This document shows, one piece after another, positions 754 through 34,786 of a stretch of DNA of 64,000 nt. How positions within the stretch are numbered: the first letter of the stretch is position 1; every line of letters begins with the position of its first letter. Made by a program: the position numbers and the translations under genes. This DNA is from an uncultured Eubacteriales bacterium (lineage in GTDB: Bacteria; Bacillota; Clostridia; Christensenellales; CALVMC01): contig CASFOZ010000005.1 of the NCBI GenBank assembly GCA_949296455.1, positions 1-64,000 on the forward strand, given 5' to 3'. Below the pieces are notes generated by a model, which was not told the origin of the DNA, did no database searches, and saw only the letters and a list, made by a program, of their open reading frames with translations.

Positions 754-782
754 TTGACTTTAAATCTTTTTAAAGTTATAAT
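754..782 (+). promoter_or_regulatory. Sigma-A type promoter (TTGACT-17-TATAAT) for giant-protein pair 1
   Basis: ttgact at 754-759, a 17-nt spacer, tataat at 777-782. A nearly identical element (ctattgacttta...) lies upstream of the second pair. RBS aaggagag precedes the ATG at 851. Confidence 0.7.
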
Positions 783-850: not shown

Positions 851-3800
851 ATGAAAAAAAGCAAATTATTAACAGGCTCTGTACTTTTTGTAATAATTTC
901 TGCGATACTTGCGCTATTATTTACAAACAGTTACATTTCCGTTAAATCAACATCGAATTATATAAATTCAATCGGCGCAGAGGTTGCGGCAGGGGAAGTT
1001 TATATAAACAAAACAGGGGATACAGACAAAATATCCACAATACAAGGTAAGCAAAATTCTTATTCCTGGCTGGATATCTCTATTCCGGACGATGAGAGAC
1101 CGGAAGGAAGAGGAAACAACGACTCTCATTATATCATTGAAAATTCAGCGCAGCTCAGATGGCTTTCTCACAGGATAGGATTCGGGGGAAGCGGTTCGAA
1201 TAATAATATATATGTAGATTTAGCAGCGGATATCGATATGAGTACCGTTACAACGAAAGCAGTGGTCAATACGGCTGCTTTATCGCATAACGGTTATTAT
1301 AATACAAACGGCGTGCACAGTCCACTGAATGCCGACTATTTGGCTTGTACCGATTTTATAGATGTTGAAGTCGGCGAACAAATCGACGCTTCGGTTTATA
1401 GTTATTATCAAAAATCAAGCAGCGCTTATTTTTATACGATTTTAACTTTTGACGAACAAAAAAATTTATTACAGAATAAGATTAAAGCTTTCAACCTAAA
1501 ATATAACGGTAACGGGTCCACTCAGAGCACCTGGTTCACTGTACCCGAGGGAGTTGCCTATGTTAAATTACAAATAGGCAATACACAATCTATGCTTATC
1601 AATGAGACTGAGCTGACTTATACAATTTATAATCCCGACAGCACTCAAGAAAATACATACAACATGCATTCGTGGCTTCCGATAGGTAATGCTTCTAAGC
1701 CGTTTTCGGGATATTTCGACGGGAAAAATTATACAATTTCCAATTTAACAATCAGCACCGAAGTGCTTAATTCCGATATAAATAACTATGTAGGTTTCGG
1801 TTTATTCGGAACGGTTAAAGCCGGTGAGTTCAGAAATTTAAATATAATTAACAGCGCAATCGAAAGTTTAAATAAAACAACCGATGTTTATGTAGGCTTA
1901 TTTGCGGGACAAAGTACGGCAGGAAGCGGATTTTACGATATAACCGTAGGCTCTCAAGGTGCGGCCGGTGAAGAGTTTTCTTATGTAATAGGCGATTTTA
2001 CCTCTAATTCAAGGGTTGGCGGCGTTATAGGATACGGTAAGGGTTACTTTGCAGAAAGGCTTACAAATTATGCCCTTGTAAAGAGCGACTCTGTATTTAC
2101 GGGGGGAGTCTCGGGAGAGTTCGAAGGTCTTACGCAATATGAAACGAATGATATAAAAGTTTTAAAAAATTACGGATTGGTAACGAAAGACAGCGGCAAT
2201 CCGAACAATGGCGGCGTAATCGGTTATGCGTATCGTGTTAAAATATCTGACTGCATAAATTACGGTTCGGTAGTAGGATATACCTCGGGCGGAGTTATAG
2301 GAAGAATTTCAGACGGAACGGTATCGAGATGTGTTAACTACGGGGACTATGTCGAAGGAGCTATAGGAATAGGCGGCGTTTTAGGCAGAATACATACCGG
2401 TCAATCGGTAACGGTAAGCGAATGTTTGAATTACGGACTTATAAGGACTGCGTCTTCGGTCACCGAGCTTTCTTCAAGCACAACTTTAGGTATAGGCGGT
2501 ATAGTGGGAATAATAGACCAGGAAAGCAGTGCGACAAGGTATAAAACCGTATCCAATTGCAAGAACTACGGCGAAGTCAAAGACGAGTACAAGACAAATA
2601 CCATAAGAATGGGCGGCGTTGTAGGTCAGGCCTCTTCGGCTGATGTAAAAGAGTGTGAAAACAACGGATATATACATTCGTCAAACGCAGCCGAGGTCGG
2701 AGGAGTTTTAGGATATGCCGCAAGAACAGGAATAACAAGATGTTTTAATAACGGCGAAGTTTCCGGTGATACCTTTGTCGGCGGAATATTCGGAAATTTC
2801 GGCGGTTCGAGTTTCGACACAACCATAAGCGACTGTTATAACGAAGGAGATATAACGGCAACCGGGGCAAGCGGCAGCGGCGAAGGATACGCCAGCGCAG
2901 TAGCAGGCGGAATAGCCGGCAGGTACGATGCTTCGGGCAGGACAAACTCGACCTTTTTAAGATGCGTCAATATAGGTTCTGTCAGCGGTAACAATGCAGG
3001 CGGAATAGTAGGAAGTGCTTGGCAGTTAAATGCTAAAATGATAGATAATTATACATTAATGCAAGACTGTTACAACAAAGGCGCAGTAAACGGTGCTAAT
3101 TATGCAGGCGGTATATTCGGAACGATAATTTCGTCAAGTTATCATAAAGCGGGAACAATACTGATTAAAAATGTTTACAATTCCGGCACGGTTACATTGA
3201 ATTACGGGACGAATAAAGGAACGCTTGCAGGAAATGTATCTCTTCAAGCGGCTGACGAGCCCTTGCTCGAAGTCAGCAATTTTTATGCTTATTCAGAAGA
3301 TGGAACAACACAGAATAATGTAGGAGCGTCAAGCAGCGCAATTACCGTCACGAATTCCAATGTTAACATATCGGGTACGGTGGACGAGTCGGATTTTGCA
3401 GGTTTCGATTTCGGAGCGGACGAAACATGGGGATTGGTATCCACATATAATAACGGACTTCCTTATTTAAGAGCAATCGACGAAATTAATCTTACATTCA
3501 ACTACAACAGAAGCGGCATTGCAAGCGAGAGCATAGTAATACTGTATGGCGACGGCAATTACACGGTAAACAGCGAAGATTACAACGAAAAGGCAAATTA
3601 CAGATATCTTGTAGATTATTGGACTTTAAGCAGCGACGGTAGCGGTACGCAATACGGAGTGGAAAGCAAACTTCCGATAGAAAGGCTCAGGGATATAGAA
3701 ATATTTGCAAATTATGTTGCCGCACCTTACAGAATAAAGATAGAAGGAATAACTCAAACAATCAGCGGCGCTCTTAAAGAAACAAGCACCGATACCGAAG

Positions 3801-6157
3801 TTCCGACAAAAGAATCAAGCGAAACTTCAAAAACATATCAGGGAACATACACGATAGACAACGCTTCCTCTTACATTCTTGTGGCGTCAGGCGACAGTAC
3901 GGTAAGCGGCACTGATTACAACTTTGCAGGCTGGAATGTTTTAACTTCCGACGGAACATATTCGCCCGTCGCATACGGAAACGGAAATACGACAATATCG
4001 CTCAGCGAAGTTTTCAACAATATGATAGAAGGCTGGGATACCGACGGAGTTATAACTTTGGTTCCGAAAACCGGCAGCATTATCTACCTCGATTTTATGG
4101 TCGAAGGAGAAGAGCACGGTGCAATTCAAGTCAACGGAAGCACTATGGAGTTCGGAGGCAGAGAGTCGGCTTATGCAGGAATAAACTATATTATCAATTC
4201 TACCTTACAAAACTACTATGAAGTAGAAAAATATACTATAAGTTATCCTGAGGTTACAGGACAAGACGCAAAAGTCGAAGAGAAGACAACAAGGTCTTTC
4301 GAACTCAATTTAATTTCGGCTTACGAAGGTTCGGCAATTACAATTACGGTTAAATACAGACCTATGGATATAAGCTTTAACCTTTATGCGGTTGATTCCA
4401 ATTTGGCTTCCATAGGGAACGCAAGCGATTATGCAAGTTTGATTTCGGGAACCGTTGCAATAAACGGAATGTTTTCCGACGATATAAACATTTATGAATC
4501 GGAAAGATATAGATTTTCAGAAATGATAATAGTAAACAGAAGGACTTCCGAAAATCTCGTTTACAGCGCAGACGAACTTAATATGAGCACGGTTGAAGAT
4601 AATCCACAGTATGTGTTCGATAACGGTCTCATTACTTTCGACGAAACCAATCTTTATAATTACGCTTATAATAACGAAATCGTAATATATCTTGTCTACG
4701 AACAATACTATCTTATTAATTTTTCCGTTAATTCGGGCGGTTATGCTTTCTTATATGTAGATAACGGCTCAGGTTATACCGAAGTTTCGCTTATCGGTAT
4801 CAATATCGCAGAAGAAAATGAACCGGTAAATATTTTATACGAAGATTCCGTATATGTTAAAGGAAATTCGAGTATAAAAATCGAGGCATTTTCTTATGAC
4901 GCTTACGAGTTTTCAAACTACGATGTAATTCAGGGACCTTTGTATACAGTTATCGGTTCTCAGATGAATCTCGTAGCAAGTGAAGATGTCGAAATAGATG
5001 TTGTATTTGCCTTTGAAACTTATACTTTAAGGTATCTCGCAAAGACCGATACCGGTTCCAACATAAGTTCGATAGACGGCGGCTTCTATGTAAACGGCGA
5101 GCCCGGCAATGTGGTCAAACTCGGCGACATAGTTACTTTCGTGCTTCCCGAAGCTACAAAATATAAATTTACAGGTCTTAAAATAACTTTAAGAAACGGC
5201 GCCGAAACGGATATAGATTATAATACCTTAAAATCTTTCGAAGTGACCAACGAGTTTATCAATTCATACTTCGACAGCAAATCGGTTTCCACCGTAACCG
5301 CTACTTTTATAAGACAAAGACTTTTCAGTATCAGTACCGATTCAAAGGACGGCTCTTATGAAAGTATCAGCTGTTATGTCGTAAACGGCAGTGTGGAAAC
5401 GCCTTTCGAAGCGGTTTTAGGCGTTACTTATAATTTCGACGCAAATACCGTTATTAAAATTGTCGCAACGCCTGCAAAATATTACGAGTTTGTCGGATTC
5501 AAAGGTCAGATTGCTTCAAGCGAACTTACCGAAAACGACAATATCGTAAATATTAAATTAAATGCAGACCGTGTTATCCTTGCTTCTTTCAAAGCTACCG
5601 AATTCAATATCGAAGTTGTGGACGGTTCGGGCAAGGTTGACGGAGACTTTTCCGCAAATTCCAAAACTGCGGTAATAGGCGATAAAATCATTCTTACCTT
5701 CTCGCCTAAAACAGGCTACGCAATCGGAGATTGGACGGTTAACGGTATAGATGTAATGTCTTCCGATTTGCAGGAGAACATAGTATTTTCAGGAAATACC
5801 GTAACTATAACTCTCGATAAAAACTGGCTCGACACCTTTACCGACAATACAATAACGAGCGTCGTTAAAACTACGCTGTCGCCTCTTATCTTAGGTATCG
5901 TTATAGGAGGAAGTTTAGGAGTAGTTATCCTCGTTGCCGTTCTTATTGTGCTGATGATACTTTCTCAGAAACAGAATAAGAAAATTAAAGAAGAACTTCT
6001 CGAAGAAAACAAAGAAAAAATGAAGTTCGTCAGCGAAAGCAATATAGTAAGCAGATTAAGAGCGGGCGAAAATGTTACGCAAATCAGTGACGAAGATATA
6101 AAAGCTTTCAAAAAGGCTAAAAAGGCTGCAAAAAAAGCCGCTAAAAAAGATGAATAA
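851..6157 (+). CDS. Giant surface protein A1 (1768 aa). It has an N-terminal signal/anchor helix and a GLUG-like Cys-ladder beta-helix repeat region. Listeria-Bacteroides/InlB-B-repeat-like and Ig-like modules follow, then a C-terminal TM helix and a Lys-rich cytoplasmic tail.
   Basis: Uninterrupted 5.3-kb ORF with an RBS. The N-terminus MKKSKLLTGSVLFVIISAILALLF is hydrophobic. Motifs YIIENSAQL...DIDMS and PFSGYFDGKNYTISNLTI are present. About 10 rungs of C-x-N-Y-G-x-V-x-G...VGG(I/V)(I/L/V)G, plus FAGFDFGADETWG...NNGLPYL. The C-terminal half has repeated ~90-aa modules (V-DGSGKV...GD.I.LT.SP..GY.I..WTVNG). The C-terminus is LILGIVIGGSLGVVILVAVLIVLMIL followed by KQNKKIKEELLEENKEK...KKAKKAAKKAAKKDE. 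Confidence 0.9.
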   Translation: MKKSKLLTGSVLFVIISAILALLFTNSYISVKSTSNYINSIGAEVAAGEVYINKTGDTDKISTIQGKQNSYSWLDISIPDDERPEGRGNNDSHYIIENSAQLRWLSHRIGFGGSGSNNNIYVDLAADIDMSTVTTKAVVNTAALSHNGYYNTNGVHSPLNADYLACTDFIDVEVGEQIDASVYSYYQKSSSAYFYTILTFDEQKNLLQNKIKAFNLKYNGNGSTQSTWFTVPEGVAYVKLQIGNTQSMLINETELTYTIYNPDSTQENTYNMHSWLPIGNASKPFSGYFDGKNYTISNLTISTEVLNSDINNYVGFGLFGTVKAGEFRNLNIINSAIESLNKTTDVYVGLFAGQSTAGSGFYDITVGSQGAAGEEFSYVIGDFTSNSRVGGVIGYGKGYFAERLTNYALVKSDSVFTGGVSGEFEGLTQYETNDIKVLKNYGLVTKDSGNPNNGGVIGYAYRVKISDCINYGSVVGYTSGGVIGRISDGTVSRCVNYGDYVEGAIGIGGVLGRIHTGQSVTVSECLNYGLIRTASSVTELSSSTTLGIGGIVGIIDQESSATRYKTVSNCKNYGEVKDEYKTNTIRMGGVVGQASSADVKECENNGYIHSSNAAEVGGVLGYAARTGITRCFNNGEVSGDTFVGGIFGNFGGSSFDTTISDCYNEGDITATGASGSGEGYASAVAGGIAGRYDASGRTNSTFLRCVNIGSVSGNNAGGIVGSAWQLNAKMIDNYTLMQDCYNKGAVNGANYAGGIFGTIISSSYHKAGTILIKNVYNSGTVTLNYGTNKGTLAGNVSLQAADEPLLEVSNFYAYSEDGTTQNNVGASSSAITVTNSNVNISGTVDESDFAGFDFGADETWGLVSTYNNGLPYLRAIDEINLTFNYNRSGIASESIVILYGDGNYTVNSEDYNEKANYRYLVDYWTLSSDGSGTQYGVESKLPIERLRDIEIFANYVAAPYRIKIEGITQTISGALKETSTDTEVPTKESSETSKTYQGTYTIDNASSYILVASGDSTVSGTDYNFAGWNVLTSDGTYSPVAYGNGNTTISLSEVFNNMIEGWDTDGVITLVPKTGSIIYLDFMVEGEEHGAIQVNGSTMEFGGRESAYAGINYIINSTLQNYYEVEKYTISYPEVTGQDAKVEEKTTRSFELNLISAYEGSAITITVKYRPMDISFNLYAVDSNLASIGNASDYASLISGTVAINGMFSDDINIYESERYRFSEMIIVNRRTSENLVYSADELNMSTVEDNPQYVFDNGLITFDETNLYNYAYNNEIVIYLVYEQYYLINFSVNSGGYAFLYVDNGSGYTEVSLIGINIAEENEPVNILYEDSVYVKGNSSIKIEAFSYDAYEFSNYDVIQGPLYTVIGSQMNLVASEDVEIDVVFAFETYTLRYLAKTDTGSNISSIDGGFYVNGEPGNVVKLGDIVTFVLPEATKYKFTGLKITLRNGAETDIDYNTLKSFEVTNEFINSYFDSKSVSTVTATFIRQRLFSISTDSKDGSYESISCYVVNGSVETPFEAVLGVTYNFDANTVIKIVATPAKYYEFVGFKGQIASSELTENDNIVNIKLNADRVILASFKATEFNIEVVDGSGKVDGDFSANSKTAVIGDKIILTFSPKTGYAIGDWTVNGIDVMSSDLQENIVFSGNTVTITLDKNWLDTFTDNTITSVVKTTLSPLILGIVIGGSLGVVILVAVLIVLMILSQKQNKKIKEELLEENKEKMKFVSESNIVSRLRAGENVTQISDEDIKAFKKAKKAAKKAAKKDE

Positions 6158-6172
6158 TAAGGGGACGGTAAT

Positions 6173-9100
6173 ATGAATAAGAATTATAGTTTAAATAAGA
6201 GTTTAAGTAAAATATTATTTATTGCATTAGTTTTATTCCTTGCGGTTGCCCTTGCAGTTTGCACGGCTGTATCCGGCACGGGAAGTTTGATTGTTTCGGA
6301 AAATAAGGTAACTACAAATTCCGAAAATACTTCCACCATATACGGCGCAGATATAACGGAATACGACGGAACCGTCAGCGCAGCGGTGCAGGAAGATTTC
6401 GACGACGCTAATCTTGCAGGCCGTTGGCAGGGCACGATAGACACTGCCTACGACCCTTCTTCCGAGACGGTGAACGCAGGACAAGACGGCAGCTTTGCAA
6501 AACCGTACTATATCGAAACTGCCGAACAATTAATTAATGTTATAAACAACGCTTCTTCAAAAAGCGGCTCAGAATATACGGACGCTGCTTATAATAATGC
6601 GGACACCTACTTCATAATTAAAAATGATATCGATTTAGGCTCTAAAATGTATGCCGTTTCCGACCAGTCAAGAGCGCTATTCAATATCACCGGTTACGAT
6701 TACACGGCGCTTTCTGGCTATGAAGACTTTGCGACAAGCACAGGCTTTACCGACGGAGGAAACAATTATTCCGATACCGAAAATCCTTTTAAGGCAATTA
6801 AAAAATATCTTGACGACAAAAATATCGGAGAATCTGTTTCCGATATTCAGCAAACCGGCAACGATTTTGCAACGATATATAACTTATATATCGAACCGGA
6901 AAGCTCTTCAAACACAATAGAAGTCGGTCTCTTTAATTTATTCAACGCAAGTGCGTTAGGTATAAATATTTATAACGCTTATGCAAACAACAGTCTTGCT
7001 TTCGATAATTTCGGCTTTTTTGCAGGCGCAAGCACAACCGATGCGTATTTTGCCAAAATAAATATAAAAGGCGCTACCTTTGTTTATGGCGACTCTTATT
7101 CTTCAAGGTCAATAGGCGGTATTTTGGGAAGAGCGCAAGACGGTCATTCGGTAACTTTCGACTCGGTAGGGTTCGAAGGCGGAATAATTGCCGCAGGTAT
7201 AAGACATATCGGCGGTATGGTAGGTTATGTATATACAGGTACAAATCTCACTTTTACGGGAACCAATGAAACTTACGGTAAAATAAGCGCACAGCGGGAG
7301 AGCGGCGGTTTTGTAGGATATGTCGAGTCGAGCAATCTTGTTTTCGAATCGAATAACACCAACAATATCGATATCGACACAACCAACAATGCAGTCGGCG
7401 GCTTTGTCGGATTGCAATCTGAAGGTTCTTTGTCATTCACCGGCAGCAGTAAAAATCTCGGAACGGTAAGAGGGTATAGTTATGTAGGCGGCTTTGTAGG
7501 TTCTTTGGCTGCAAGAAATGTTACCATAACAGGCGGCGTTAACGGCTATAACGGCGGCGCTGCGGACGATACTCTTGTAGAAAAATATAACGATCCTAAT
7601 TCCGCAATAGAGGCAAGCAATATATATGTAGGCGGTTTTATCGGCCGTTTAAGAAGAGCGGAAGCGGTTTTAAGTATTACTAACTCTCATAACTATATGG
7701 TTTTAAAGAATGTTGCAGGAGTTGCGCCAAGTACGGCTTACGGCGGTATAGTCGGCGAGTTCGAGGGGGCTTCCGCAACAATTGAAAATTGCATAAACCA
7801 TGCAGATATCAATAATTTTTATAAGACAGCAGACGGGGCTCAAAGCAATGCCGTGGGCGGAATTGTCGGTAGTTTAAGAGCGGATTTTGTAATACAAAGC
7901 TGCAAAAACTACGGGGATATCAAATCTCATATGAGAGTGGGCGGTATTGCAGGTCTTGCAAACTATAACAATACTTCCGTGAAAATTTACGACAGTATAA
8001 ATTACGGAACTATTTACGCAACAGGATATGACGCAGCGGGAATATTTGCTTCGGCTTATGCAAATATTTATCCTATAAGAATAGAAAGATGCGAAAACTA
8101 CGCTTCAATTTATGTTTCGCCCACAATGAATTTGGCGGGAACCGCAAAACAGGACGGCAGTGTATACAGCGACGAAGAAGCTTTTGAGGTGACGACGGAC
8201 GACAAAAATACGAAATACAAAGATACTCCTACCGTTGCGGGCGGAATACTCGGCTACTATAAGCATTTGACAAACGAAGTAGACGGAGTTTATGTTATAG
8301 ACTGCGTCAACGGAACATCCGAAACACAAAACAAAATTAAAGTTTACGGAAGGAATGTAGGCGGTATTGTCGGAGGTAACGGAAGAAATGCCGCAAATAT
8401 AAACTTTACTATAAATCTCATAAATAATACTAACTATATGGATGTCCACTCAGGAGGCTTTGTCGGCGGTCTTTACGGATATATTACAGGCTATACAAAC
8501 CTTACTATCGGTAACCCGAGTTTCGATGAAGGGTATCAAAAAATATACGGAAACTTCGGCACGGTTTACTCTTATGTCGGCGGCGACGCAAATATAAGCG
8601 CAGATACGGGTAGTTTGATAGGTAAAATAGGCGGATACCTTAAACTTGTCGGTAAAAACGATTATATAAACGATACCGTTGTTAACAGCGAAAATGTCTG
8701 CGTAGGCGGAATTATAGGTTATATGACTTTAACATATTCCGAGTCGGTTGATTTATGCGCAAACTGGGGCAACGAAGAAACCATTAATGGTGGCAGAACC
8801 CATGTAGGTGGAATTTTAGGAGGGTACACAGGTGGCAGTGTAAAAATAACCGGTCAAATGTATAATACGGGCGAGGTTATCTGTCAATATGGAACCTCTT
8901 ATATAGGCGGACTTATTGGAAGAGCTTTAGGTGCATTAACTATAAGCGCCAAAGTTTATAATGAAGGGAATGTTTACAGTCAGCTTAAAACCACGGACGC
9001 ATCTTACGGTACAGTATCAGGCAGTATAGGCGGACTTATCGGCTCTATGGAAAACAATATTGAATTCACAGAAGGCGCCGCAGGCTCTTATAACAGCGGT

Positions 9101-12100
9101 ATAATTTACGCCAACTTTAGAAACATAGGCGGTATTATAGGTAGTTTGAATGGAACGGGATACTTCAGCGAAATTTATTCTTACGAAAATCCTTTAATAA
9201 AAGACGGTAGGGTATTAGACCTTATAATTTATGACGCACAAGGCAATAGCGAAAACATTTCTGTAAAAGAAACAATTTATGGGGAAGCTTGCGTATCCGG
9301 CTTTATAGGGTACGGCGGGAAAAACGCTAAAACTTTAATTTTTGGAAATTGCGACAATTACGCTACCTGCTATTCAACGGCTAACGATGTAGGCGGATTT
9401 ATAGGTCAAAGTACTTCTACAACTTCATTAACTATGAATAACTGCTTCAACTATGCAGACCTTACATCCGGTACAGGATTTATAGGCGGACTTGCAGGCT
9501 CTCATATTTCCGGACTTGATATTACAAATTGCGGAAATTACGGCGATATAACCGCTATATCGGGCTCCAAAGCGGGCGGTTTGTTTGCCTGGATCGGTGG
9601 CAACAATACTGTAGACGATGTTATTACGAACTGTTTTAACGAGGGGAATGTAGACTGCGCACAGGACGCAGGCGGTATAGTAGGACAAATAATAAATGTT
9701 AACGATGTCAAAATAATAAACTGTTACAATAAAGGAAATGTTTTCTATAGCAGAGATGTTTCATCGGGAACCACTACTCAGACTATCGGCGGTCTTGTAG
9801 GATATGTAACAAATGTTTACGGCGCGCTGACGGTGGATAACTGTTATGTTGAATGCGAGCAGGTGGGTAATAGTAACTCTATGTTTGTAGGTGGTCTTAT
9901 CGGGAATATATACTACACAATAAGCGATTCAAGCCTTGTAATTACAAATTGCCATACCGATATAAAAAACATTTATACATCAAGAGATGTAGGCGCAGCC
10001 GTAGGTTCTCTCAAAGCCAAATCAAATTCACAGGTAACGAACTTTACCATAACCGATTGCTATTTTATGGGAGAGACGATTACGGGTTCGGTGCTTGTAG
10101 GCGGTATCTTGGGAAATGTGGCAAATATTAAAAATCTGACGCTTAAAAGAATCGCTTTACTTGTAGACCGTATTGTACTTACCAGCAACAGCTATTCAAT
10201 AGGACTTATCGCACAGGCAATAGGCGGTTTTTCCGGGAAAATCGATATATCCGATATTTATATAACTAGCGATGCGGTTACAACTTCCGGAGCGGTGTCG
10301 TTCATTGTAAGGGATTTAAGATTCAGTTACAACAGCGCAGACCTTACCTTCCTTTTAAAGAACTATTATTACAGCGGCGATATCCGCGGTTCATACAATA
10401 ACGGCAGCGGCGAAGTAAATTTCAACGCTTCGGCGACAAACCTGTTCTCTAGAATAGACAACAGCGTTGCAAGTTCGAGTTATATGAAAACATTTTCCGT
10501 TCACAATGTTCTCATAAAACAAATTCCTTCGACAACTACTTTCAATATGGTCGGCGGCGTATTTGAAAATTCCGGAACGGGACTTCCTAATTTCAGCCCC
10601 GAAATCACTAATTCGATGGAATTTTCCTTCGGTGACGAATACGACAATAGATTCGTTACGGCTGCACAGTTGCAGGATATAGATACATTCGAAAATTGGG
10701 GTATAACAGAAGATGTCAGAAGCGGAAACGCTAATACTTCTCTCACCCCTTGGGGTATAGACCCTTCGGTAAACGAAGGAAAACCCTTCCTTATGGATAT
10801 ACTCAGAAAAGATATAGTAATTTACTATAACAACATAGGCGACGACCTCGATATATTCGATAACACCGTTATAAGAGGTAGTGACGAAATCGCAACGGAA
10901 ACCGTTGTCACTGTCATTACTTATATAACCGATACTATTACTTATAATCAGTTAACAGAAGGCGCTCAGGATTACAGCGACTACGAATACTTAAAGAAAA
11001 TCAACAGAGTAGGCTACGAGGTAACGGATTTTTATAAGGCAAGAGAAGAAGACGGTAGTTTTTTAGAAGAAAACAAATATACCGAATTCGTTAAAACCGA
11101 TTCCGGCAAAATTTACACTGTTTTCGACGATATGGTATTATATGTCGATTATGCGCTTGTTAACTATACAATTGCTCTCGATAACGGCGAAGAAATCAAG
11201 GTTATGGGAGCTGTAAACAACAGTTTCAATTTAAAATCGACCGGTATCTATATTGAAAATATCAACACTGCCGAATCGGTTGCACCTTTTGTATACTTTG
11301 CTTTAAAAGTTCCCTCAAGCGCACCCGCCGCTTTTGACGCAATCGGCGAAGATAAAATGGTTCTTATTTCGGGAGAGACTGGAACTACCAATGCAATTTA
11401 TAACTTAAGTTTCGAAAACTTTATAAATCAGCAGATTTTATACAGTTATGCAAACGGAACTACTCTTACATTCAAAGCAATGTTCGTTCCCGTTTACAAA
11501 GTCTCATTTGCTCTTTCCGACGGAACATTCCCGTCCTATCTTACCATTACCAATTCGAGCGGCGTCGCAGTCTCGTTCGGTTCGGTTATAAGTATTCAGG
11601 AAGGACAATCGGAAACTTTTACTATCTCTATCGCTAAACATTATAAGTTCGGCAATCTTTATGAGATTGACGCTGAAGGTGAAAAACATACTGTTATAGC
11701 AGGGAATTCCGATAACGGTTATTTGTACAACAATACTCTGCACACTATAACTATCTTAAACTGCACGGAAGGAGAGACATATAATTTTGAAATAAGTATT
11801 GGTGCTACCGAATATACCATTAACTACGAAATCTTAAATTCTTTCGGCGACTCTATCAATCCTTCGCAGGACGATGTAAGTCTTGCATATCCTTATCAAA
11901 GTGCTTACATAGGTAACACCGTGGCAGGTCAAAATATTTATATCAATCAGGATAGCGTTTATACTTTCGTCAAATACAGATATGCTTACATATTAAACGA
12001 TTCTATCGTTTATGAAGATATAGATACTGAAAATAATACGGCTTTAGGCGCTATTGTTTGTTCCTCGGATTTTCTGAGTAAATACGCAAACGGCAATATC

Positions 12101-13594
12101 ATTACAATTCAGATTATTCTCGAATCTAATGTAAGCGTTAATATCCAAATTTCCAATTTCACAGATTGGGACGACGATTACGGCTATGTATTGATTAATG
12201 TCTATAATGCAGATAATGTCTTGCAGAGCGAATTTACTTTGAATCAATCTTATAGTTCGTTTAACGAAACTTTCGATATAGGTTATATTATCGAAGTTAT
12301 TCCTTATGCAAATACCTATTTCGAAATTACTAAATTAATGCTTAACGGTTCCGATGCTTCTTTGTCTAGCGGCAAGATTACCTTGGTTTTGGAACAGAAC
12401 CAAACCTTGAATATCGAAATGGATTATGTTAAATTCTACGTCTCATATTCCGTTGTCGACGAGAATAATAACGAAATCGACGGCGCAAACGAAAATATGT
12501 CCGCTGGGTTGGTAAACGGTAATGATTATATTACTAAAACCGGCGATATCGTTAGAGGCTCCATGAGCGAAATTTCCGGCTTCGCCTTTAATTCTTGGGG
12601 AGTTTTAGTAGGGGATATTTACATTCCTTTCTCGTCCGATTCTTTCGCAACCGACGGAACCCTCATGAACGGAACCCTCGATATCAATATCTTAGATAAC
12701 TATTCCAACGGAAATAACGAAATCGTCGTCGTTTGTAAACTCTTTACTCTCTTTAATATTAACTTCGCTATTTCCGATACCGGCGATAATTTAGGTCAGT
12801 TCAAGGTCGAAGTATTTAACGATACTTTTAATCGTTTCGATGTTGTCAATGTCGCCGAACTCGAAGTCCTGCCGTTCAATTCAAATATCAGAATTACCGC
12901 TATCGACGGCGATTACTATGATTTCATTCAGTTTACAGGCGTTTACAGCGAAGAGGTCGACGCTCAGAATCCTTTGGTCGCACAGTTCCTTCTCACCGAA
13001 TCAAGAACGATACTTCTTCAATTCCGGGCTAAAAATATCGAAACTTCTTTAACCGAAGACCTTTCAAATGCTTCAGGTCAGCTCATTGTTTCAAGCTCTT
13101 CAGGAAGTACCGATACATGGAAAGCAGGCGATACCATTTCTTTCACCTTCGACGGCTCTTTCGGTCAGGAAATAGAGTCCTTCTCGTTAAACGGCATTGA
13201 CGCAAAGGAATTAGCTTCAACTTACGATAATATCACTTACGCTAACGGAGTTCTTACCGTTACCTTGACTATCGACTTTTTGGAAAACTTTAACCTTAAA
13301 GATTTCCAAATTTCAGTCTCTTCCGAAATCGGTACTGTTTATCTCGTTATGCTTCTCAGCATTATTATCGTTCCTATCGTGCTTACCGTGCTTATTTTGA
13401 TTTTCGTTATAATCAATATCAAGAGAAGAAAGAAAGCTATGGAAATCGTTGCTCAGAGAAAAGCTTCTATGTCGAGATTCGAAGCGTCCAGTATGGTAAG
13501 CGAACTTAAAAAAGGAACCTATCAGCAGGTGGACAGAAATGTTTCCAAAGAGGAAATAGAAAGACAGCTTAAAGCAAGAAAAGACAATAAATAA
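6173..13594 (+). CDS. Giant surface protein B1 (2473 aa). Signal peptide (possibly lipoprotein-like, ...LAVC), then a very long Cys-ladder GLUG-like beta-helix region and Ig-like C-terminal modules. It ends with a C-terminal TM helix and a basic cytoplasmic tail.
   Basis: A 7.4-kb ORF starts 15 nt after A1, with RBS aagggga. More than 20 rungs of the type NC(x)NYGDI...(V/A)GG(I/F)(I/V/A)G are visible. The motif TFENWG...PWGIDPSVNEGKPFL is related to the A-protein ETWG...NNGLPYL. The C-terminus is LVMLLSIIIVPIVLTVLILIFVIINI followed by KRRKKAMEIVAQRKAS...EIERQLKARKDNK. Confidence 0.9.
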   Translation: MNKNYSLNKSLSKILFIALVLFLAVALAVCTAVSGTGSLIVSENKVTTNSENTSTIYGADITEYDGTVSAAVQEDFDDANLAGRWQGTIDTAYDPSSETVNAGQDGSFAKPYYIETAEQLINVINNASSKSGSEYTDAAYNNADTYFIIKNDIDLGSKMYAVSDQSRALFNITGYDYTALSGYEDFATSTGFTDGGNNYSDTENPFKAIKKYLDDKNIGESVSDIQQTGNDFATIYNLYIEPESSSNTIEVGLFNLFNASALGINIYNAYANNSLAFDNFGFFAGASTTDAYFAKINIKGATFVYGDSYSSRSIGGILGRAQDGHSVTFDSVGFEGGIIAAGIRHIGGMVGYVYTGTNLTFTGTNETYGKISAQRESGGFVGYVESSNLVFESNNTNNIDIDTTNNAVGGFVGLQSEGSLSFTGSSKNLGTVRGYSYVGGFVGSLAARNVTITGGVNGYNGGAADDTLVEKYNDPNSAIEASNIYVGGFIGRLRRAEAVLSITNSHNYMVLKNVAGVAPSTAYGGIVGEFEGASATIENCINHADINNFYKTADGAQSNAVGGIVGSLRADFVIQSCKNYGDIKSHMRVGGIAGLANYNNTSVKIYDSINYGTIYATGYDAAGIFASAYANIYPIRIERCENYASIYVSPTMNLAGTAKQDGSVYSDEEAFEVTTDDKNTKYKDTPTVAGGILGYYKHLTNEVDGVYVIDCVNGTSETQNKIKVYGRNVGGIVGGNGRNAANINFTINLINNTNYMDVHSGGFVGGLYGYITGYTNLTIGNPSFDEGYQKIYGNFGTVYSYVGGDANISADTGSLIGKIGGYLKLVGKNDYINDTVVNSENVCVGGIIGYMTLTYSESVDLCANWGNEETINGGRTHVGGILGGYTGGSVKITGQMYNTGEVICQYGTSYIGGLIGRALGALTISAKVYNEGNVYSQLKTTDASYGTVSGSIGGLIGSMENNIEFTEGAAGSYNSGIIYANFRNIGGIIGSLNGTGYFSEIYSYENPLIKDGRVLDLIIYDAQGNSENISVKETIYGEACVSGFIGYGGKNAKTLIFGNCDNYATCYSTANDVGGFIGQSTSTTSLTMNNCFNYADLTSGTGFIGGLAGSHISGLDITNCGNYGDITAISGSKAGGLFAWIGGNNTVDDVITNCFNEGNVDCAQDAGGIVGQIINVNDVKIINCYNKGNVFYSRDVSSGTTTQTIGGLVGYVTNVYGALTVDNCYVECEQVGNSNSMFVGGLIGNIYYTISDSSLVITNCHTDIKNIYTSRDVGAAVGSLKAKSNSQVTNFTITDCYFMGETITGSVLVGGILGNVANIKNLTLKRIALLVDRIVLTSNSYSIGLIAQAIGGFSGKIDISDIYITSDAVTTSGAVSFIVRDLRFSYNSADLTFLLKNYYYSGDIRGSYNNGSGEVNFNASATNLFSRIDNSVASSSYMKTFSVHNVLIKQIPSTTTFNMVGGVFENSGTGLPNFSPEITNSMEFSFGDEYDNRFVTAAQLQDIDTFENWGITEDVRSGNANTSLTPWGIDPSVNEGKPFLMDILRKDIVIYYNNIGDDLDIFDNTVIRGSDEIATETVVTVITYITDTITYNQLTEGAQDYSDYEYLKKINRVGYEVTDFYKAREEDGSFLEENKYTEFVKTDSGKIYTVFDDMVLYVDYALVNYTIALDNGEEIKVMGAVNNSFNLKSTGIYIENINTAESVAPFVYFALKVPSSAPAAFDAIGEDKMVLISGETGTTNAIYNLSFENFINQQILYSYANGTTLTFKAMFVPVYKVSFALSDGTFPSYLTITNSSGVAVSFGSVISIQEGQSETFTISIAKHYKFGNLYEIDAEGEKHTVIAGNSDNGYLYNNTLHTITILNCTEGETYNFEISIGATEYTINYEILNSFGDSINPSQDDVSLAYPYQSAYIGNTVAGQNIYINQDSVYTFVKYRYAYILNDSIVYEDIDTENNTALGAIVCSSDFLSKYANGNIITIQIILESNVSVNIQISNFTDWDDDYGYVLINVYNADNVLQSEFTLNQSYSSFNETFDIGYIIEVIPYANTYFEITKLMLNGSDASLSSGKITLVLEQNQTLNIEMDYVKFYVSYSVVDENNNEIDGANENMSAGLVNGNDYITKTGDIVRGSMSEISGFAFNSWGVLVGDIYIPFSSDSFATDGTLMNGTLDINILDNYSNGNNEIVVVCKLFTLFNINFAISDTGDNLGQFKVEVFNDTFNRFDVVNVAELEVLPFNSNIRITAIDGDYYDFIQFTGVYSEEVDAQNPLVAQFLLTESRTILLQFRAKNIETSLTEDLSNASGQLIVSSSSGSTDTWKAGDTISFTFDGSFGQEIESFSLNGIDAKELASTYDNITYANGVLTVTLTIDFLENFNLKDFQISVSSEIGTVYLVMLLSIIIVPIVLTVLILIFVIINIKRRKKAMEIVAQRKASMSRFEASSMVSELKKGTYQQVDRNVSKEEIERQLKARKDNK

Positions 13595-13627: not shown

Positions 13628-13656
13628 AGCCCGGTAGACTTACCGGGCTTTTACTT
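13628..13656 (+). terminator. Possible intrinsic terminator after B1 (weak T-run)
   Basis: Hairpin agcccggta-gact-taccgggct is followed by ttttactttaat. Confidence 0.45.
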
Positions 13657-13854: not shown

Positions 13855-13883
13855 ATTGACTTTATTTATAATAGATATTATAA
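13855..13883 (+). promoter_or_regulatory. Sigma-A type promoter (TTGACT-17-TATAAT) for giant-protein pair 2
   Basis: ttgact at 13855-13860, a 17-nt spacer, tataat at 13878-13883. It shares the ctattgacttta core with the 754-782 promoter. RBS aaggag precedes the ATG at 13945. Confidence 0.7.
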
Positions 13884-13944
13884 TATACTTACTGATAGTA
13901 TTGCTAAAATACTGTTATACAATTCTATATAAGGAGTTGTTATT

Positions 13945-16900
13945 ATGAGTTTAAAAAACAAACTGATATCATTATTTGTAATAACATTTATAATTATTAG
14001 TTTATTATGCATTTTGTTTTCAGGTAACAGTATTTCTTTAAACACATACCTTTCAAACGGCTCGGCGGCTAATACAGAGAGTACTGTCGATTATACAAAC
14101 AAAATGCCTACTAATAATAAGATTTCACAAATTCAGAGTTTGGCTAATCCTCTTAATTATGTCAGTATTTCCATACCCGACGATGAAAAACCTGAGGGAA
14201 GAGGAACTTATCGCGAACCGTATATAATTATGGACGCAGGCGATTTAAGATGGCTTACTAACAGGGTAGGTTACGGCGAGTCGGGTTCAAACACTAATAT
14301 ATATGTCGAACTCGGCGAAAATATAGATATGAGTAAACTTACCACAAAAGCCAGGGCACTTACAACTTCTTTGACTCACAGCGGTTATTATAAAAGCGGT
14401 TCAAGCTATGTTGCAAGAACGGCAAACTATATTGTTTGTACAGATTTTTTAGATGTAAAGGAAGGCGAACAGATAGATTCCCAGTTTTATGCTCAGTATC
14501 AGACTTCTACTTCCGATTATTTCTATACCATATTTCCTTTCGATTCCTCTGAAAAAATGATAGAGAGCGGAATTAAAGAATTTACTATAAAATACAACAC
14601 TAATGTCAGTACATGGTATACCGTTCCTGCGGGAGTTAAATATATTAAAATACAGGTGTGGAATACCGCTTCGGCAAATATAAACTCAAATAGATTGGTT
14701 TATACCAGCTATAAAAGCACAAATGCGGCAATCACTTACAACACATATTCCTGGATGCCGATAGGTAACGATATAAAGCCTTTCAGCGGTAATTTTGACG
14801 GGAAAAACCATACTATTTCGAATCTTACCATAAGCACCAACCTTTTGGCAGGCGCGGCAAGCGATTATACTATGCTGGGACTTTTCGGAAGAGTCAGCGG
14901 CGGCGAATATAAAAATGTCAATATCGTAAACAGCTGTATAGAAGGAACCTATACCGCAGGCGAAGTTCATTTAGGACTTTTTATGGGCGGCGGTACAGGC
15001 AGGGTTTCTCTCGATAACATTACGGTAGGGGCAAATGTTCCTTTGGAAGAAGAGGGATCGATTATTTCCGGTACATTCCCGCAAAACGCAAGGGTCGGCG
15101 GAGTTATAGGAAGTGCGGTAACTACAGCTCTTACCAATTTAAAGAATTATGCCTGGGTTCAAGGAAACTCTTCCTACATGGGCGGCATTGCAGGTTATGT
15201 AAGCGGACTTACAAATTTCGAATACAATAACTCTTCAAATTTATATAATTACGGAAGGGTAAAAAAGAACGACGGTTCTTCCGCCGATGCGGGAGGCATA
15301 TTCGGAACTGCCGAATATACTAATTTAGAAGATTCCGCAAATTACGGTACAGTTACCGGCGCAGTCGCAGGCGGTATTATAGGAAAACATAAAGGCGGAA
15401 CTATTTCTAGTTGCGTCAATAACGCCGTCTATGTCGAAGGAAAAGCAGGAGTAGGCGGTATCGTCGGGAATATTCTCAAAGGAGTAACGGCTTCGGTGAG
15501 CGACTGCACAAACAACGGCAGGGTTGTCACTACTCAGGAAAGTGCGGATAACGATAGCGATGTCTGCATAGGCGGTATTGTCGGAAGAATAGACGAGGAT
15601 ACCGTAGTAACAAGAAAAAAATATATTTCAGGCTGCGTAAATAACGGTCAGGTTTATGACCAATACAGAACGGCCGATACCGGCAACAACAACGCCAATG
15701 TTATAAGAATGGGCGGAATTGTAGGCGCTTCTTTCTACGCTTATATTATAGAGTGCGAAAATAACGGTGAAGTCCGTACGCCTTCTTACGAAGTAGGAGG
15801 GGTTTTAGGTTATGCTTCGGTAACCGATATCAGCAAATGCTACAATAACGGTAGGGTTCAAGGCGCAAGCAGAGTCGGCGGAATATTCGGAAATTTCGGA
15901 GGAAGAAATACGAATGTTACCGTTTCCGATTGCTTTAATCAGGGCGAAATAAGAGCAACTAAAACCAACGGCGGCTATGACGGCGCTGTCGCAGGCGGAA
16001 TAGCAGGCAGGTACGACGCCTCTTTAAAAACAAACAGTACTTTTATAAGATGTATAAACATAGGTACCGTCACAGGTAACAATGCAGGCGGTATCGCTGG
16101 CTGGGCAAAAGACCTTAACTCAAATAATTTAAACAATTATTTATTAATGGATAGCTGTTATAATGCAGGAGAGGTAAACGGCAAGAATTATGCAGGCGGT
16201 ATATTCGGCGTAATTACTTCTTCTACCGCTCACAAGACAGGCGTTATGAAAGTAATGAATGTTTATAACTCGGGACAGGTTAATTTAACGGGTAGCGGTC
16301 AGAAAGGTTCTTTTGCGGCTTTGATTTATAATAACGCTAATGCTAAGCCGGAATTAAATGTTTCTAACTTTTATGCCTATTACAGTTCGGGCACGCCTTA
16401 TTCTATTGTAAATCAAAACGGAAACGGAAGTTCATATCAGTTCAATCTTACCGGAATAAACGAAAGCACGAGCAATTTGGTAGGCTCGGTAAATCAATCG
16501 GATTTTGCAGGCTTCGATTTCGGGGCAGATGAAACCTGGGGAATCGTTCCCGGTTACAATAACGGTCTTCCTTACATAAGAGCTATTGATGAAATAGAAT
16601 TGACTTTCGATTATAATACTGTCGGAATAGAAAACGAAACTATTATTGTTCTTTACGGAACAGGCAGCTATACATTAAGCAATACAGTATATAATGAAGA
16701 CGCAAAATACGGCTATAAAGTAAGTAACTGGACTTTAAGTCAGGACGGAAGCGGTACAAGTTACGCCAACGGTGATTCCATTCCCGTTCAAAGACTCAGA
16801 GATATGGTAATATACGCAAACTATGTAGGTGCGCCTTATACTATAAAAATAGCCGGCATAACAAGTACGATAGACGGTGCGTTGACAAATGTCAGCGGCG

Positions 16901-19274: not shown

Positions 19275-22200
19275 ATGAAAGGAAATTATTTTGCACATAG
19301 AAAAATATTTAAATTATCAGTAATATTATTGGTGCTTTCAATTTTAATTGCACTTTTTACAGGTGTACTGTTTGCAAATAAAGATAATTATTTTATAACA
19401 AATAATTCTTATTCGGAAATAGATACAGAAAATACCGGAACGATTTACGGTGGAAGCATTACCGAGTATAACGGAACCGTAAGTTCTGCAATTTCCAATG
19501 CTTACACTGCAGCTAAAAATGCCGGTAATTGGCAGGGTTCAATAAATACATCATACAATCCTGCAAGCGAAAGCATAAACTCGGGAAGAGCAGGAACTTT
19601 TACTCAGCCTTACTATATCGATACGGCAGATCAGCTCGTAAAAGCCATTAACAACGCTTCTACAAAAAGCGGTTCCGATTATACTTACGCAAGTTATAAT
19701 AATGCAAATACATACTTTGTTATAAGAAAAGATATTGATCTTGCTTCAAAATTATATATTGTATCCAATCAGTCAAAAGTTAATTTCAATATATCAGGTT
19801 ATGACTATACTGCAATAAGCGGATATGCAAATTTTGCTACATCGACAGGTGTGCAAAGAGACGGAAAAACATATTCTAATACAACCGATCCGCTCAGAGC
19901 AGTTAACGAATACTTAAAAGATAATAATATATTTGATAATGTATCTTCGATAAATGCGACAGGTAATACATTTAAGACTATAAGTAATTTATATTTGGGG
20001 TTTGCTTCTAATAACGGTTTGTTCAACGAATTGGAAGGGAGCGTTTTAGCATTGAATTTTTATAATGTATATTATAATGGAACAGGAAGCAATCTCAACT
20101 TTTTAGGAGCGTTAGCAGCAAAGAAATACGGGTATTCGGTAGCAAGCGTTAATGTAAGGGGGCTTACTTTTAACATAAGCGGAGGTACTTCATCTGGAAA
20201 TAGCGGATATGGCGGAATTTTAGGGTTTGCAACAAATGGCGGACTTATAGATAATTCTGGTTTCGAAGGAGGATTAATTGCAACAAGTCTAAGAAATGTA
20301 GCAGGTATTGTAGGCTTAACAGATACTAATTTTGACGGTTCTTTTGTCGACAATACAGTTTATGGAAATATTTTATCCGGTAGAGGTAATACCGGAGGTT
20401 TAGTAGGATATCTACAAGGGAATTGCGAATTTAGCGGGACTAATATCAATAATGCAGATATCGAATCGAATTCGGGCTCTTTAGGCGGTATAATTGGAAT
20501 TTTTTCGGGAAGTTCTACAAGTTTACAAATAAGCGGAAACACTAAAAATTTAGGAAATATTCGAGGAACCAGTTCGGTAGGCGGAATAATAGGAACGGTA
20601 AGAGGATATGTAATTATGTCTGATGCCGTAAACGGTTATAACGGCGGTGCCTCAGACAATAATTCAGTAGGAAATTATTGCGATCCTAATGCAAGCATTC
20701 AAGCTTCCGGAAGCGGCGTTGGTGGACTTTTTGGATATGTGTATAGCCAAATTGAAATTAGTAATTGCCATAATTTTATGGAAATCATGTCAGGGCCCAA
20801 ATACGATGTAGGAGGATTAATGGGTATAATTCAAAGCGGTAGCGTTATAGATTCCTGTGTTAACCACGCAGATATATCAATGTTCGACATTTCAAATCTG
20901 GGCGGAATAGTAGGAGTACTCTACGGAGACTCTGAAATTAAAAATAGTGTAAATTACGGAAATATTTCAGCTAAATCAAACGCAGGCGGAATAGCCGGCA
21001 TATCTTATGCTACTATAGAAAATCAAGTATTTAGTGGGTGTAAAAACTATGGAACAATTGCATGTATATCAGGAAGAGCGGCAGGAATCTTTGCTGCGGT
21101 TCATTCTACTGTTAATAATTTAATTATAGAAAACTGTTCTAATTTCGGCTCGGTTTATAACGCTTCTACTATGAACAAGGTAGGAACTGCGAAACCGGGC
21201 GGCGGCACCTACTCTTACGAAGAGGCTTTTAAAGAAAGTTCTTACTCTGCAGCAGCTGCATATGTGGCAGGCATTTTAGGTTATTACGATAATTTTAATG
21301 TAACGGGAGGGGTTACTGTACAAAACTGTACTAACGGAACCTCAGGGACAAACAGTGTGATCAAATCGTCTTATCGCTATATAGGCGGTATTGTCGGAGG
21401 TAGCGGTCTTGCGGAGGACGGAACAGGTACTTTATACGATAATTTCTTTATAACCTTAAAAAATAACACAAATTATATGGATATCTCGGGTTGCGGGTAT
21501 GCAGGCGGACTCTACGGTCATATGAGAGGAAAAATTAAACTTACCATAGGGAACCCCGATATAGATACCAAAACTTACGGAAATTTCGGAACAATAACTT
21601 CTTTTCATTCAACAAGTGCCGATATAGGTTCTATTGCAGGTTGTATAAGGGGAACTCTCGACCTTGTAGGAGACAATGCTTATAAAAATGAAGAAACAAT
21701 CGAGACAAGCGAAGCGGCTACAACCGCAGGTGGTATAATAGGATTTATAGAAGGCACGGGCAGCAATACAATAGAGCTCAGCGCCAACTGGGCAAACGAA
21801 GCCGATATCGTAACCGGCAGAAGTTATGTCGGAGGAATAATCGGCGGAACCAGCAGAGCAAACTTTGTAATTTCCGGCGCAATGTACAATACAGGAGATA
21901 TCATTTGTAAAGCGGGAACAACTTATATAGGCGGTTTGTTTGGCAGCATGGCTTTGTCTCTTAGCATAAAAGCTTATATTTATAACGAAGGTAATGTTTA
22001 CAGTCAGCTCAAAACCACTGACAGTACGGTCAGCAGTGCTTCGGGAAGCATAGGCGGAATTGTCGGAAATGTAGGCGGTAAACTTGAATTTACACAAAGC
22101 GCCGCAGGCTCTTACAACAGCGGTATAGTTTACGCCAATTTCAGAAAGGTCGGCGGTATTGCAGGTAATGTGGGCGGTACGGTATCGATGACCGGAGTTA

Positions 22201-26639: not shown

Positions 26640-26660
26640 TTATAGCGATTCAATAGAAAA

Positions 26661-26687
26661 ACTCCGAAAAATTCGGAGTTTTTTTAT
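26661..26687 (+). terminator. Rho-independent terminator after B2
   Basis: actccgaa-aaa-ttcggagt perfect hairpin followed by ttttttt. Confidence 0.85.
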
Positions 26688-26737
26688 TGCAAATTTTTAT
26701 TAATATAATTAAATTAATAATTTTTTTGCTTATATCT

Positions 26738-33187: not shown

Positions 33188-33214
33188 TAAAAAAGCGGAG
33201 GATGAACTTTATTT

Positions 33215-33844: not shown

Positions 33845-33855
33845 GGAGGCTTAAA

Positions 33856-34772: not shown

Positions 34773-34786
34773 AGGAGGATTAAAAA

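Follow-up and report, generated by a model that had tools for sequence, protein, structure and literature searches.

Purifying selection on a transmembrane-and-tail module of paired giant surface proteins from uncultured Clostridia, a possible cytoplasmic docking handle

The first 27 kb of a 64,000-nucleotide stretch from an uncultured Eubacteriales bacterium (assembly GCA_949296455.1, contig CASFOZ010000005.1, positions 1 to 64,000; hereafter the window) contain four large genes on the forward strand, A1, B1, A2 and B2. These appear to encode giant paired surface proteins, each anchored by a C-terminal transmembrane (TM) helix and ending in a basic, putatively cytoplasmic tail of 59–64 residues. 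The tails are closely similar between duplicates whose ectodomains have diverged widely, and our analysis supports purifying selection rather than gene conversion as the cause. We propose that, in uncultured Clostridia, the conserved tails serve as a cytoplasmic handle by which a surface complex of two subunits is docked or assembled, a reading to which we give, as a whole, a probability of roughly 0.6. Its parts differ in strength: it is very probable that selection acts on an anchor-and-tail domain common to a whole protein family, while a specific docking role, in the cytoplasm or between subunits, is tentative and falls a little short of an even chance.

Overall identity is 54% between A1 and A2 and 48% between B1 and B2, compared to 78% (A) and 89% (B) over the last 65 aligned residues. 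When windows of 65 residues were compared along each pair, identity was elevated at the 3' end and the tail was the most conserved window in both, the best earlier window reaching 74% in A and 75% in B (column-shuffle p for the excess, 5e-5 in A and < 5e-5 in B). Conservation climbs gradually over the last 200 residues, the 135 residues preceding the anchor being already 60% (A) and 68% (B) identical. An earlier sequence-only reading of the window had drawn attention to this conserved 3' end, using gene models, coordinates and peptides that are correct. It had put ectodomain divergence at about one residue in three; the true figure is about one in two, and the contrast with the tails is therefore larger than it stated. 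Its count of about seven differences between the B tails is accurate (exactly 7 of the last 60 residues differ between B1 and B2). Its description of the tails as nearly invariant is apt for B and for the juxtamembrane stretch of A (SQKQNKKIKEELLEENKEKMKF, identical in A1 and A2), but is too strong for the A tail as a whole, in which 14 of 65 residues differ. Nor are the tails more than partly type-specific, as those of A and B can be aligned together and share a common core, [KR]F-x3-S-x-[IM]V-x-x-L-[RK]-x-G ... V/I-S-[DK]-E-[DE]-I.

The pattern of substitution indicates that the tail is held at the amino acid level. In a Nei–Gojobori comparison of the paralogs, the ratio of nonsynonymous to synonymous substitution rates (dN/dS, or omega) over the last 65 codons was 0.058 in both pairs, compared to 0.195 (A) and 0.215 (B) in the remainder of the genes. 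Among non-overlapping windows of 65 codons, the tail showed the lowest proportion of nonsynonymous differences (pN) of all 26 in A1/A2 and all 37 in B1/B2. We also recovered the same four genes from two further strains (L001/L003 and L005/L006), giving three strains in all. Omega between strains was 0–0.07 for the tails and 0.17–0.32 for the ectodomains, with comparable dS, and the differences comprised 96 synonymous and 10 nonsynonymous changes in the tails against 3841 and 4123 in the ectodomains (Fisher p = 5e-20 for pooled counts from non-independent pairs). The B2 tail has no amino acid change in any pair of the three strains despite 14, 18 and 5 synonymous changes, the 18 separating the window strain from strain S3. 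Ribosomal proteins L3, L4 and L2 of the same strains have omega values of 0–0.03 (S10, 0.18), and the tails are thus about as constrained as L3, L4 and L2.

The sequence-only reading had offered two causes for the asymmetry, purifying selection or gene conversion confined to the 3' ends, and of these only the former stands. Conversion, or concerted evolution limited to the 3' ends, would keep the tails of paralogs alike without selection on the protein, and the B pair gives it some encouragement: the proportion of synonymous differences (pS) in the B tail is 0.54, the second lowest of the 37 windows (gene mean 0.73, standard deviation 0.10), dS is 0.96 compared to 2.24, and identical residues use the same codon at a frequency of 0.71, where 0.48 is expected at saturation. 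Yet 54% of synonymous sites differ even in this tail, and the A tail shows the same synonymous saturation as the remainder of its gene (pS 0.72 and a gene mean of 0.71; dS at least 2.4). The tails cluster by paralog in the three strains without any grouping by strain, paralog-specific residues being fixed in all three, and paralogous tails are as far apart in nucleotide distance within a strain as between strains (0.26–0.28 for A and 0.16–0.20 for B in either case; 0.01–0.10 between orthologs). The similarity of the copies stops a few bases past the stop codon, their 3' flanks are unalignable, and their 5' flanks have little in common except AT-richness and the promoter hexamers. Because the tails group by paralog at distances equal within and between strains and lie beside diverged flanks, recent or ongoing conversion is excluded. 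Orthologs, to which conversion between paralogs is irrelevant, show the same kind of deficit of nonsynonymous change, and the motif is kept in lineages with only about 25% ectodomain identity. As a general explanation for the conserved tails, conversion is therefore very unlikely.

Constraint on the nucleotide sequence itself, through an RNA element, an overlapping gene or a structure associated with termination, has a negligible probability. The B1 and B2 tails do lie just 5' of terminator-like hairpins, but the A tails run straight into the B genes with no terminators between, third positions vary freely where amino acids are fixed, no open reading frame (ORF) of at least 100 aa lies opposite the tails, and an Rfam search of the window returned only 5S rRNA.

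The strains provide a further observation on the history of the region. Synonymous divergence between strains is higher in the block of surface genes (851–32553; dS 0.13–0.50) than in the neighbouring ribosomal protein genes (32879–35614; 0.05–0.13; strain L003), and the B2 ectodomain of strain S3 has only 77–78% identity to its counterparts in the other two strains, between which identity is 93%. The higher dS of the block and the distinct S3 ectodomain suggest that strain divergence here reflects old alleles or recombination.

The reach of the module beyond the window was assessed by searching its TM-plus-tail profile (alignment A4) against 1.84 billion representative proteins at E <= 1e-3. 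The search returned 112 matching protein clusters, including three evident false positives. The matches lie almost exclusively at the extreme C-terminus of proteins of 300–6448 aa. Common to all tails is an element hydrophobic-hydrophobic-x-x-L-[RK]-x-G about 25 residues past the membrane, often followed by VGQVTDEDVK. We defined A-class tails by a C-terminal TM helix, a basic cluster, x-I-K-A-x-L, about ten residues, then hydrophobic-hydrophobic-x-x-L-[RK]-x-G-x(2-6)-[VI]-[TS]-x-[ED]-[DE]-[VI]-K and a K-rich end; at least 59 matches carry the motif L[RK]xG..V[TS]x[ED][DE][VI]K, and the class consensus is n-x-K-K-K-x-I-K-A-x-L, about ten residues, then N-x-G-x-F-I-x-D-L-R-E-G-K-x-V-G-Q-V-T-D-E-D-V-K-x-A-M-K-x-x-K. 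In most other matches the tail is either of a shorter B class (T-M-M-N-S-T-Y-F, TM, N-N-K-K-K-A ... F-G-L-N-Q-x-x-F-x-x-x-L) or of an intermediate form, R-K-F-N-I-S-S-L-I-S-D-L-K-S-G-K, which is the closest to the tails of the window. Of the four window proteins, A1 matches the A-class regular expression (LRAGENVTQISDEDIK), while A2, B1 and B2 match with one or two deviations. The family profile aligns with the A1, A2 and B tails, which can also be aligned with the tails of proteins only about 25% identical to them in the ectodomain. Across 23 diverse tails there is little or no variation at the positions of L, G, F, K, V, T, D and M. The module extends into the membrane, with a conserved motif T-x-[ML]-N/K-x-[ST] preceding the TM helix and conserved prolines or glycines within it (IPSxxIPLL).

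As far as Pfam, NCBIfam, the PDB and the searchable literature go, this module appears to be undescribed, as do the strict pairing of its genes and their repeated occurrence beside an actin-like module (both described below). Pfam assigned no domain over the tail; five tails and four family members at full length, scanned by hmmscan against NCBIfam (PEP-CTERM, PEF-CTERM, GlyGly-CTERM, GG_III-CTERM and other models), gave nothing above cut-off; the best PDB match to the tail profile was a segment of uL29 at E = 0.36, which is not significant; and in the literature on tails of GLUG proteins and on actin-like proteins acting with surface proteins we found nothing on this tail family. A homologous-protein search with the tail alignment recovered two fragments only, and a scan of genome contigs with the C-terminal 900 aa of the B type recovered three species only.

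Basic residues flanking a TM segment mark its cytoplasmic side (the positive-inside rule). In all four window proteins a K/R cluster directly follows the TM helix, which places the tail inside the cell, and we infer a cytoplasmic tail from this rule together with a subgroup of the family in which 110–140 further residues follow the tail and, in the members read, form a Pro-rich linker and a repeat domain. In nine such proteins (P0120, P0146, P0152, P0158, P0165, P0174, P0200, P0202 and P0219) the TM helix and tail are internal and the C-terminal domain consists of ...DG[ST]I... repeats, for which, in P0120, there is no Pfam match. An AlphaFold2 (AF2) model of the A1 tail has three helices (residues 3–23, 26–35 and 44–64) with a predicted local distance difference test score (pLDDT) of 75. 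The distal end of this tail is coded by a 12-nt tandem repeat at 6116–6149 (GCTAAAAAAGCC, 2.8 copies), and the resulting KKAKKAAKKAAKK is the sole part of the tail to vary in length among copies and strains.

Tail-bearing genes occur nearly always as adjacent pairs. In every related locus with enough upstream sequence (L007, L008, L012, L013, L019, L024, L026, L027, L028, L029 twice and L030) the A-class gene lies directly 3' of a partner with a B-class tail, which encodes a protein of similar or greater size; in L032 there is one gene only, and its tail is of the intermediate form. By BLAST, the A proteins of the window correspond to the second gene and the B proteins to the first gene of the pairs in other lineages, so that the window has the two genes in the opposite order to that at the 11 other loci examined. 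Between L007 and L008, the A-class proteins have an overall identity of 38%, which rises to 76% over the last 45 aa, while their B-class partners show no such enrichment (42% vs 39%). Locus L029 (2124–12030) contains an independent tandem duplication of a B-class/A-class pair (1015+546 aa and 1097+547 aa), in which identity between paralogs is 35% and 45% over the full length, but 68% and up to 90% over the TM helix and tail.

In seven related loci the pair is accompanied by a ParM-like actin (actin-like protein, ALP) module, which was the only recurrent set to emerge from clustering of all neighbouring ORFs at 18 loci. It occurs in three arrangements: L007/L011, L008, L021 and L024 have it downstream of the pair, while L019, L028 and L032 have it upstream. 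Its surroundings look chromosomal. The actin gene matches Pfam ALP_N (7.7e-17) and a PHROG annotated as 'partition protein' (3e-41), with weak PDB matches to CorM (E = 9e-4) and ALP12 (E = 4e-3). Directly 3' of it lies a gene for a protein of 210–270 aa that combines a helical N-terminal domain with a Pro/Gln-rich linker and ends in a conserved peptide, ...GRDY[LI]LxLL; the remaining members are a protein of about 200 aa, a small Lys/Glu-rich TM protein (recognisable in three loci) and a 155-aa protein. The module actins are 62–84% identical to one another, the giant proteins about 25–40%. A synteny of this kind makes a link between the module and the tails suggestive.

MamK and MamJ offer a further comparison for repurposed cytoskeletons of the ParM/ParR type. 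CorMR of Anabaena, a chromosomal ParMR system repurposed to act at the membrane on a cargo other than DNA, provides a precedent (bioRxiv 10.1101/2025.06.27.661541). The module of the related loci resembles it in pairing a chromosomal ParM-like actin gene with a following gene for a protein that ends in a conserved peptide. It differs in being tied to the tails by gene neighbourhood alone, in its weak similarity to CorM and ALP12 and in not lying within the window.

What, then, might the tail do? The 3' module comprises a short pre-membrane motif, a TM helix containing glycine and proline, a basic juxtamembrane helix and a helix-loop-helix, and is held by strong purifying selection while the ectodomains diverge quickly. 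In the mechanism we propose, A and B would use their TM helices and tails to associate with each other, to bind a conserved cytoplasmic factor, or both, and such a factor might position, cluster or regulate the complex; the best candidate partners, at least in the relatives, would be products of the ParM-like actin module. The sequence-only reading had ascribed the constraint to an intracellular interaction, which is a reasonable view given the topology and the conservation of the tail across the family. Docking to something intracellular is probable because one tail ends about a hundred related protein groups, and a specific handle is suggested because the best-conserved residues lie 30–45 residues from the membrane, where generic anchoring does not require them.

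A purely biophysical constraint, such as stop-transfer, retention in the membrane or an amphipathic helix on the inner leaflet, would need no specific partner. It is in keeping with tails that are rich in K, R and E and predicted to be helical, and with the considerable variation of B-class tails across lineages. Generic anchoring, however, takes a hydrophobic span and a few basic residues, and accounts neither for the near-invariant G, V, T, D and M of the distal helix-loop-helix in more than 50 clusters nor for an omega as low as that of ribosomal proteins, and we consider this explanation unlikely. We hold much the same opinion of the possibility that the TM helix and tail act, like LPXTG, PEP-CTERM or GlyGly-CTERM, as a C-terminal sorting signal, recognised and perhaps removed by a dedicated enzyme or insertion pathway. 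Such signals likewise combine a short C-terminal motif, a hydrophobic span and basic residues on many surface proteins, and the module has the appropriate position on proteins of widely differing ectodomain length, with a motif before the TM helix, conserved Pro or Gly within it and a basic cluster past it. But the tails of known signals are a few basic residues, whereas here 45–60 residues of a 45–64-residue cytoplasmic part are conserved, most strongly 30–45 residues from the membrane, and this part is the best-conserved element of all. The window proteins lack an LPXTG-type motif (the pre-TM sequences are TTLSPLIL and SSEIGTVY, and the tails 59–64 aa long), no NCBIfam CTERM or sorting model reaches its cut-off, some family members continue past the tail into further domains, and the clustered neighbours at the 18 loci include no sortase-, exosortase- or rhombosortase-like gene that could process it.

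Several observations weigh against the docking handle itself. All of the tail-bearing proteins examined belong to one superfamily of repeat proteins, and the tail is therefore a family anchor rather than a signal common to unrelated proteins. B-class tails are much less conserved across lineages (L7B and L8B are 42% identical in the tail and 39% overall), and the strong constraint on the B tails of the window may thus be specific to its lineage; given the low pS of the B tail, old conversion may also have contributed a little to it. The model of the 65-residue tail was built on 54 short sequences and is of moderate confidence. A tblastn search of the 64-kb window with all module proteins gave nothing at E < 0.02, and the actin module is absent from L012, L026, L027, L029 and L030 within the available sequence. 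That the actin link applies to the organism of the window is unlikely. More speculative still, and distinctly unlikely, is that A and B are an integrin-like transmembrane heterodimer whose tails would be gripped by an adaptor with a ParR-like C-terminal peptide (the ...GRDYLLxLL protein) and so coupled to a dynamic ParM-like actin filament, with the module located elsewhere or replaced in the lineage of the window.

A parallel to our proposed handle is found in the Nap adhesins of mycoplasmas (P1 and P40/P90 in Mycoplasma pneumoniae, P140 and P110 in M. genitalium). These are large paired type-I membrane proteins encoded by adjacent, co-transcribed genes, with a single C-terminal TM helix, a conserved cytoplasmic tail thought to be coupled to an internal cytoskeleton, and a variable ectodomain with a conserved membrane-proximal end. 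The A and B proteins share the adjacent paired genes, the one C-terminal TM helix, the conserved tail and the variable ectodomain. However, we found no relation in sequence or fold, the tail motif is unrelated, the ectodomains of the window proteins consist of a putative beta-solenoid and Ig-like repeats, and the Nap hosts are wall-less Mollicutes with a terminal organelle while the hosts of the tail family are uncultured Clostridia.

By eye the tail also resembles the SHOCT domain (PF09851), which is short, mostly C-terminal and made up of a pair of amphipathic helices in which a Gly and acidic residues are conserved (PMC3581485); its core G-x-[IV]-T-x-E-[ED]-[FV] may be compared with G-Q-V-T-D-E-D-V in the tail. 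The resemblance failed tests with hidden Markov models: none of 54 tails matched SHOCT even at E <= 10, and a comparison by hhalign with the SHOCT peptide as published gave a probability of 0.2%. SHOCT is described as free of indels (PMC3581485), whereas tails of the family to which the window proteins belong have four extra loop residues. Since SHOCT is reported most often on Band_7_1 proteins (PMC3581485), the SPFH/Band_7_1 gene downstream of B2 (26834–29287) was considered as a partner of the tails and rejected; it is unlinked to tail-bearing genes in other lineages, and the SHOCT connection itself failed.

Each of the four proteins is built of the same four parts: a hydrophobic signal or anchor at the N-terminus, a long stretch of GGxxG (GLUG-like) repeats, an immunoglobulin (Ig)-like stalk of InlB B-repeat type and the C-terminal TM helix with its basic tail. 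The only window protein with a match above the Pfam cut-off is A1, to Flg_new_2 (InlB B-repeat, PF18998; residues 1528–1583, 26.5 bits vs a gathering cut-off of 23.6); B1 has no Pfam match, and neither A1 nor B1 matches GLUG (PF07581) at E <= 0.01. Distant homologs (25–35% identity) carry GLUG PF07581, Peptidase_M26_N PF05342, PF09479 and PF18998 (Flg_new-type), and from its GGxxG repeats and beta-solenoid model a divergent relation of the window proteins to the GLUG proteins is likely. Residues 60–900 of A1 are modelled by AF2 as a beta-solenoid with a core pLDDT of 85–95. In a Foldseek search this ectodomain model had no neighbour at E <= 1e-3, and the best were weak (E = 0.002–0.04) but mutually consistent beta-helices, with a phage tailspike at the top, then beta-helices of IgA1 proteases (3n6z, 7uvk; E = 0.01–0.04), then more tailspikes and depolymerases. 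The repeat region of A1 is related to that of B1 (BLASTP E = 7e-12). The construction of the ectodomains is like that of Firmicutes proteins combining GLUG repeats, the M26 IgA1-protease beta-helix and InlB B-repeats (Flg_new), but the window proteins have neither peptidase domain nor cell-wall anchor and are anchored by the TM-and-tail module instead. The Pfam scan found no peptidase family in A1 or B1, and the combination that defines an M26 IgA1 protease, an HExxH zinc metallopeptidase with an N-terminal beta-helix, is lacking.

The coordinates of these genes and of their putative signals are given in Table 1. As each A-B pair has its own promoter-like site and terminator-like hairpin, the A1-B1-A2-B2 block is an operon of two genes, A followed by B, that has been duplicated in tandem. 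Upstream is the 3' part of a 5S rRNA gene (1–93), and a 750-bp AT-rich spacer (94–850) between the 5S rRNA terminator (100–121) and A1 holds short imperfect repeats (a 26-nt unit at 276–329 and ACGGAAATTCAAAT at 437–470). Downstream are genes for an SPFH/zinc-ribbon protein and an acidic disordered protein, followed by the S10 ribosomal protein operon. The SPFH/Band_7_1 protein has three zinc ribbons and a long disordered tail rich in Q, N, S and E; its gene overlaps by 4 nt the start of the gene at 29284–32553, which encodes the acidic repeat-rich protein of 1089 aa. Both evolve fast between strains (omega 0.20 and 0.38, identity 85% and 68%), while the adjacent ribosomal proteins are 98–100% identical. 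Unusual features occur further along the window: the uL24 ORF (180 aa; region 38339–39915) carries a Lys-rich tail together with a C-terminal Cys-x2-Cys ... Cys-x2-Cys segment, the uL5 ORF (344 aa; same region) is extended at its N-terminus by about 165 aa in which Lys, Ala, Thr and Glu are abundant, and RpoB (56847–60596) has an acidic C-terminal extension of about 90 residues (…DDDDEN…DDDEDLD).

Table 1. Tail-bearing genes, putative signals and membrane segments of the window, and positions of the actin-like module at related loci
Feature	Position	Strand	Description or basis
Promoter-like site 5' of A1	754..782	+	TTGACT-17-TATAAT; hexamers and spacing as at the A2 site; consensus match only
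A1 gene	851..6157	+	1768 aa; N-terminal signal/anchor, GGxxG beta-solenoid, InlB-B-repeat-type stalk, C-terminal TM and tail
A1 TM helix	5876..5962	+	LSPLILGIVIGGSLGVVILVAVLIVLMIL; read from sequence
A1 cytoplasmic tail	5963..6154	+	64 aa; predicted juxtamembrane helix, helix NIVSRLRA, loop GENVTQIS, helix DEDIKAFKKAKK...; matches family A-class consensus
B1 gene	6173..13594	+	2473 aa; starts 15 nt 3' of A1; overall architecture as A1
B1 TM helix	13331..13414	+	GTVYLVMLLSIIIVPIVLTVLILIFVII, central proline; sequence
B1 cytoplasmic tail	13415..13591	+	59 aa, NIKRRKKAMEIVAQRKASMSRFEASSMVSELKKGTYQQVDRNVSKEEIERQLKARKDNK; sequence
Terminator-like hairpin 3' of B1	13628..13649	+	sequence
Promoter-like site 5' of A2	13856..13884	+	TTGACT-17-TATAAT
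A2 gene	13945..19257	+	1770 aa; A1 paralog
A2 TM helix	18979..19065	+	sequence
A2 cytoplasmic tail	19066..19254	+	63 aa; sequence
B2 gene	19275..26639	+	2454 aa; starts 17 nt 3' of A2; B1 paralog
B2 TM helix	26376..26459	+	sequence
B2 cytoplasmic tail	26460..26636	+	59 aa; sequence
Terminator-like hairpin 3' of B2	26651..26689	+	sequence
ParM-like actin module, seven related loci	L007 21517-25124; L008 17409-21148; L019 291-2673; L021 4208-7477; L024 11413-14659; L028 2-2959; L032 1936-5982		

A variable surface protein on a conserved anchor is a familiar pattern, but this particular anchor is uncatalogued: a domain of about 100 residues, TM helix and tail together, with which large proteins of about a hundred clusters end in uncultured Clostridia of the gut and of fermenters. 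The ribosomal-like constraint, the paired genes and the recurrent actin-module neighbour together suggest a two-subunit transmembrane device in communication with the cytoplasm, rather than a simple tethered adhesin. Definition of the domain provides a search handle for the family and a short peptide with which an intracellular partner may be found. If the tail serves only to assemble the pair, the result is a useful annotation and nothing more. If the partner is the actin module, it would represent a new use of a DNA-partition cytoskeleton, and were the integrin-like arrangement to prove true, Clostridia would have turned a plasmid-partition machine to a new purpose, that of positioning, clustering or moving giant surface adhesins.

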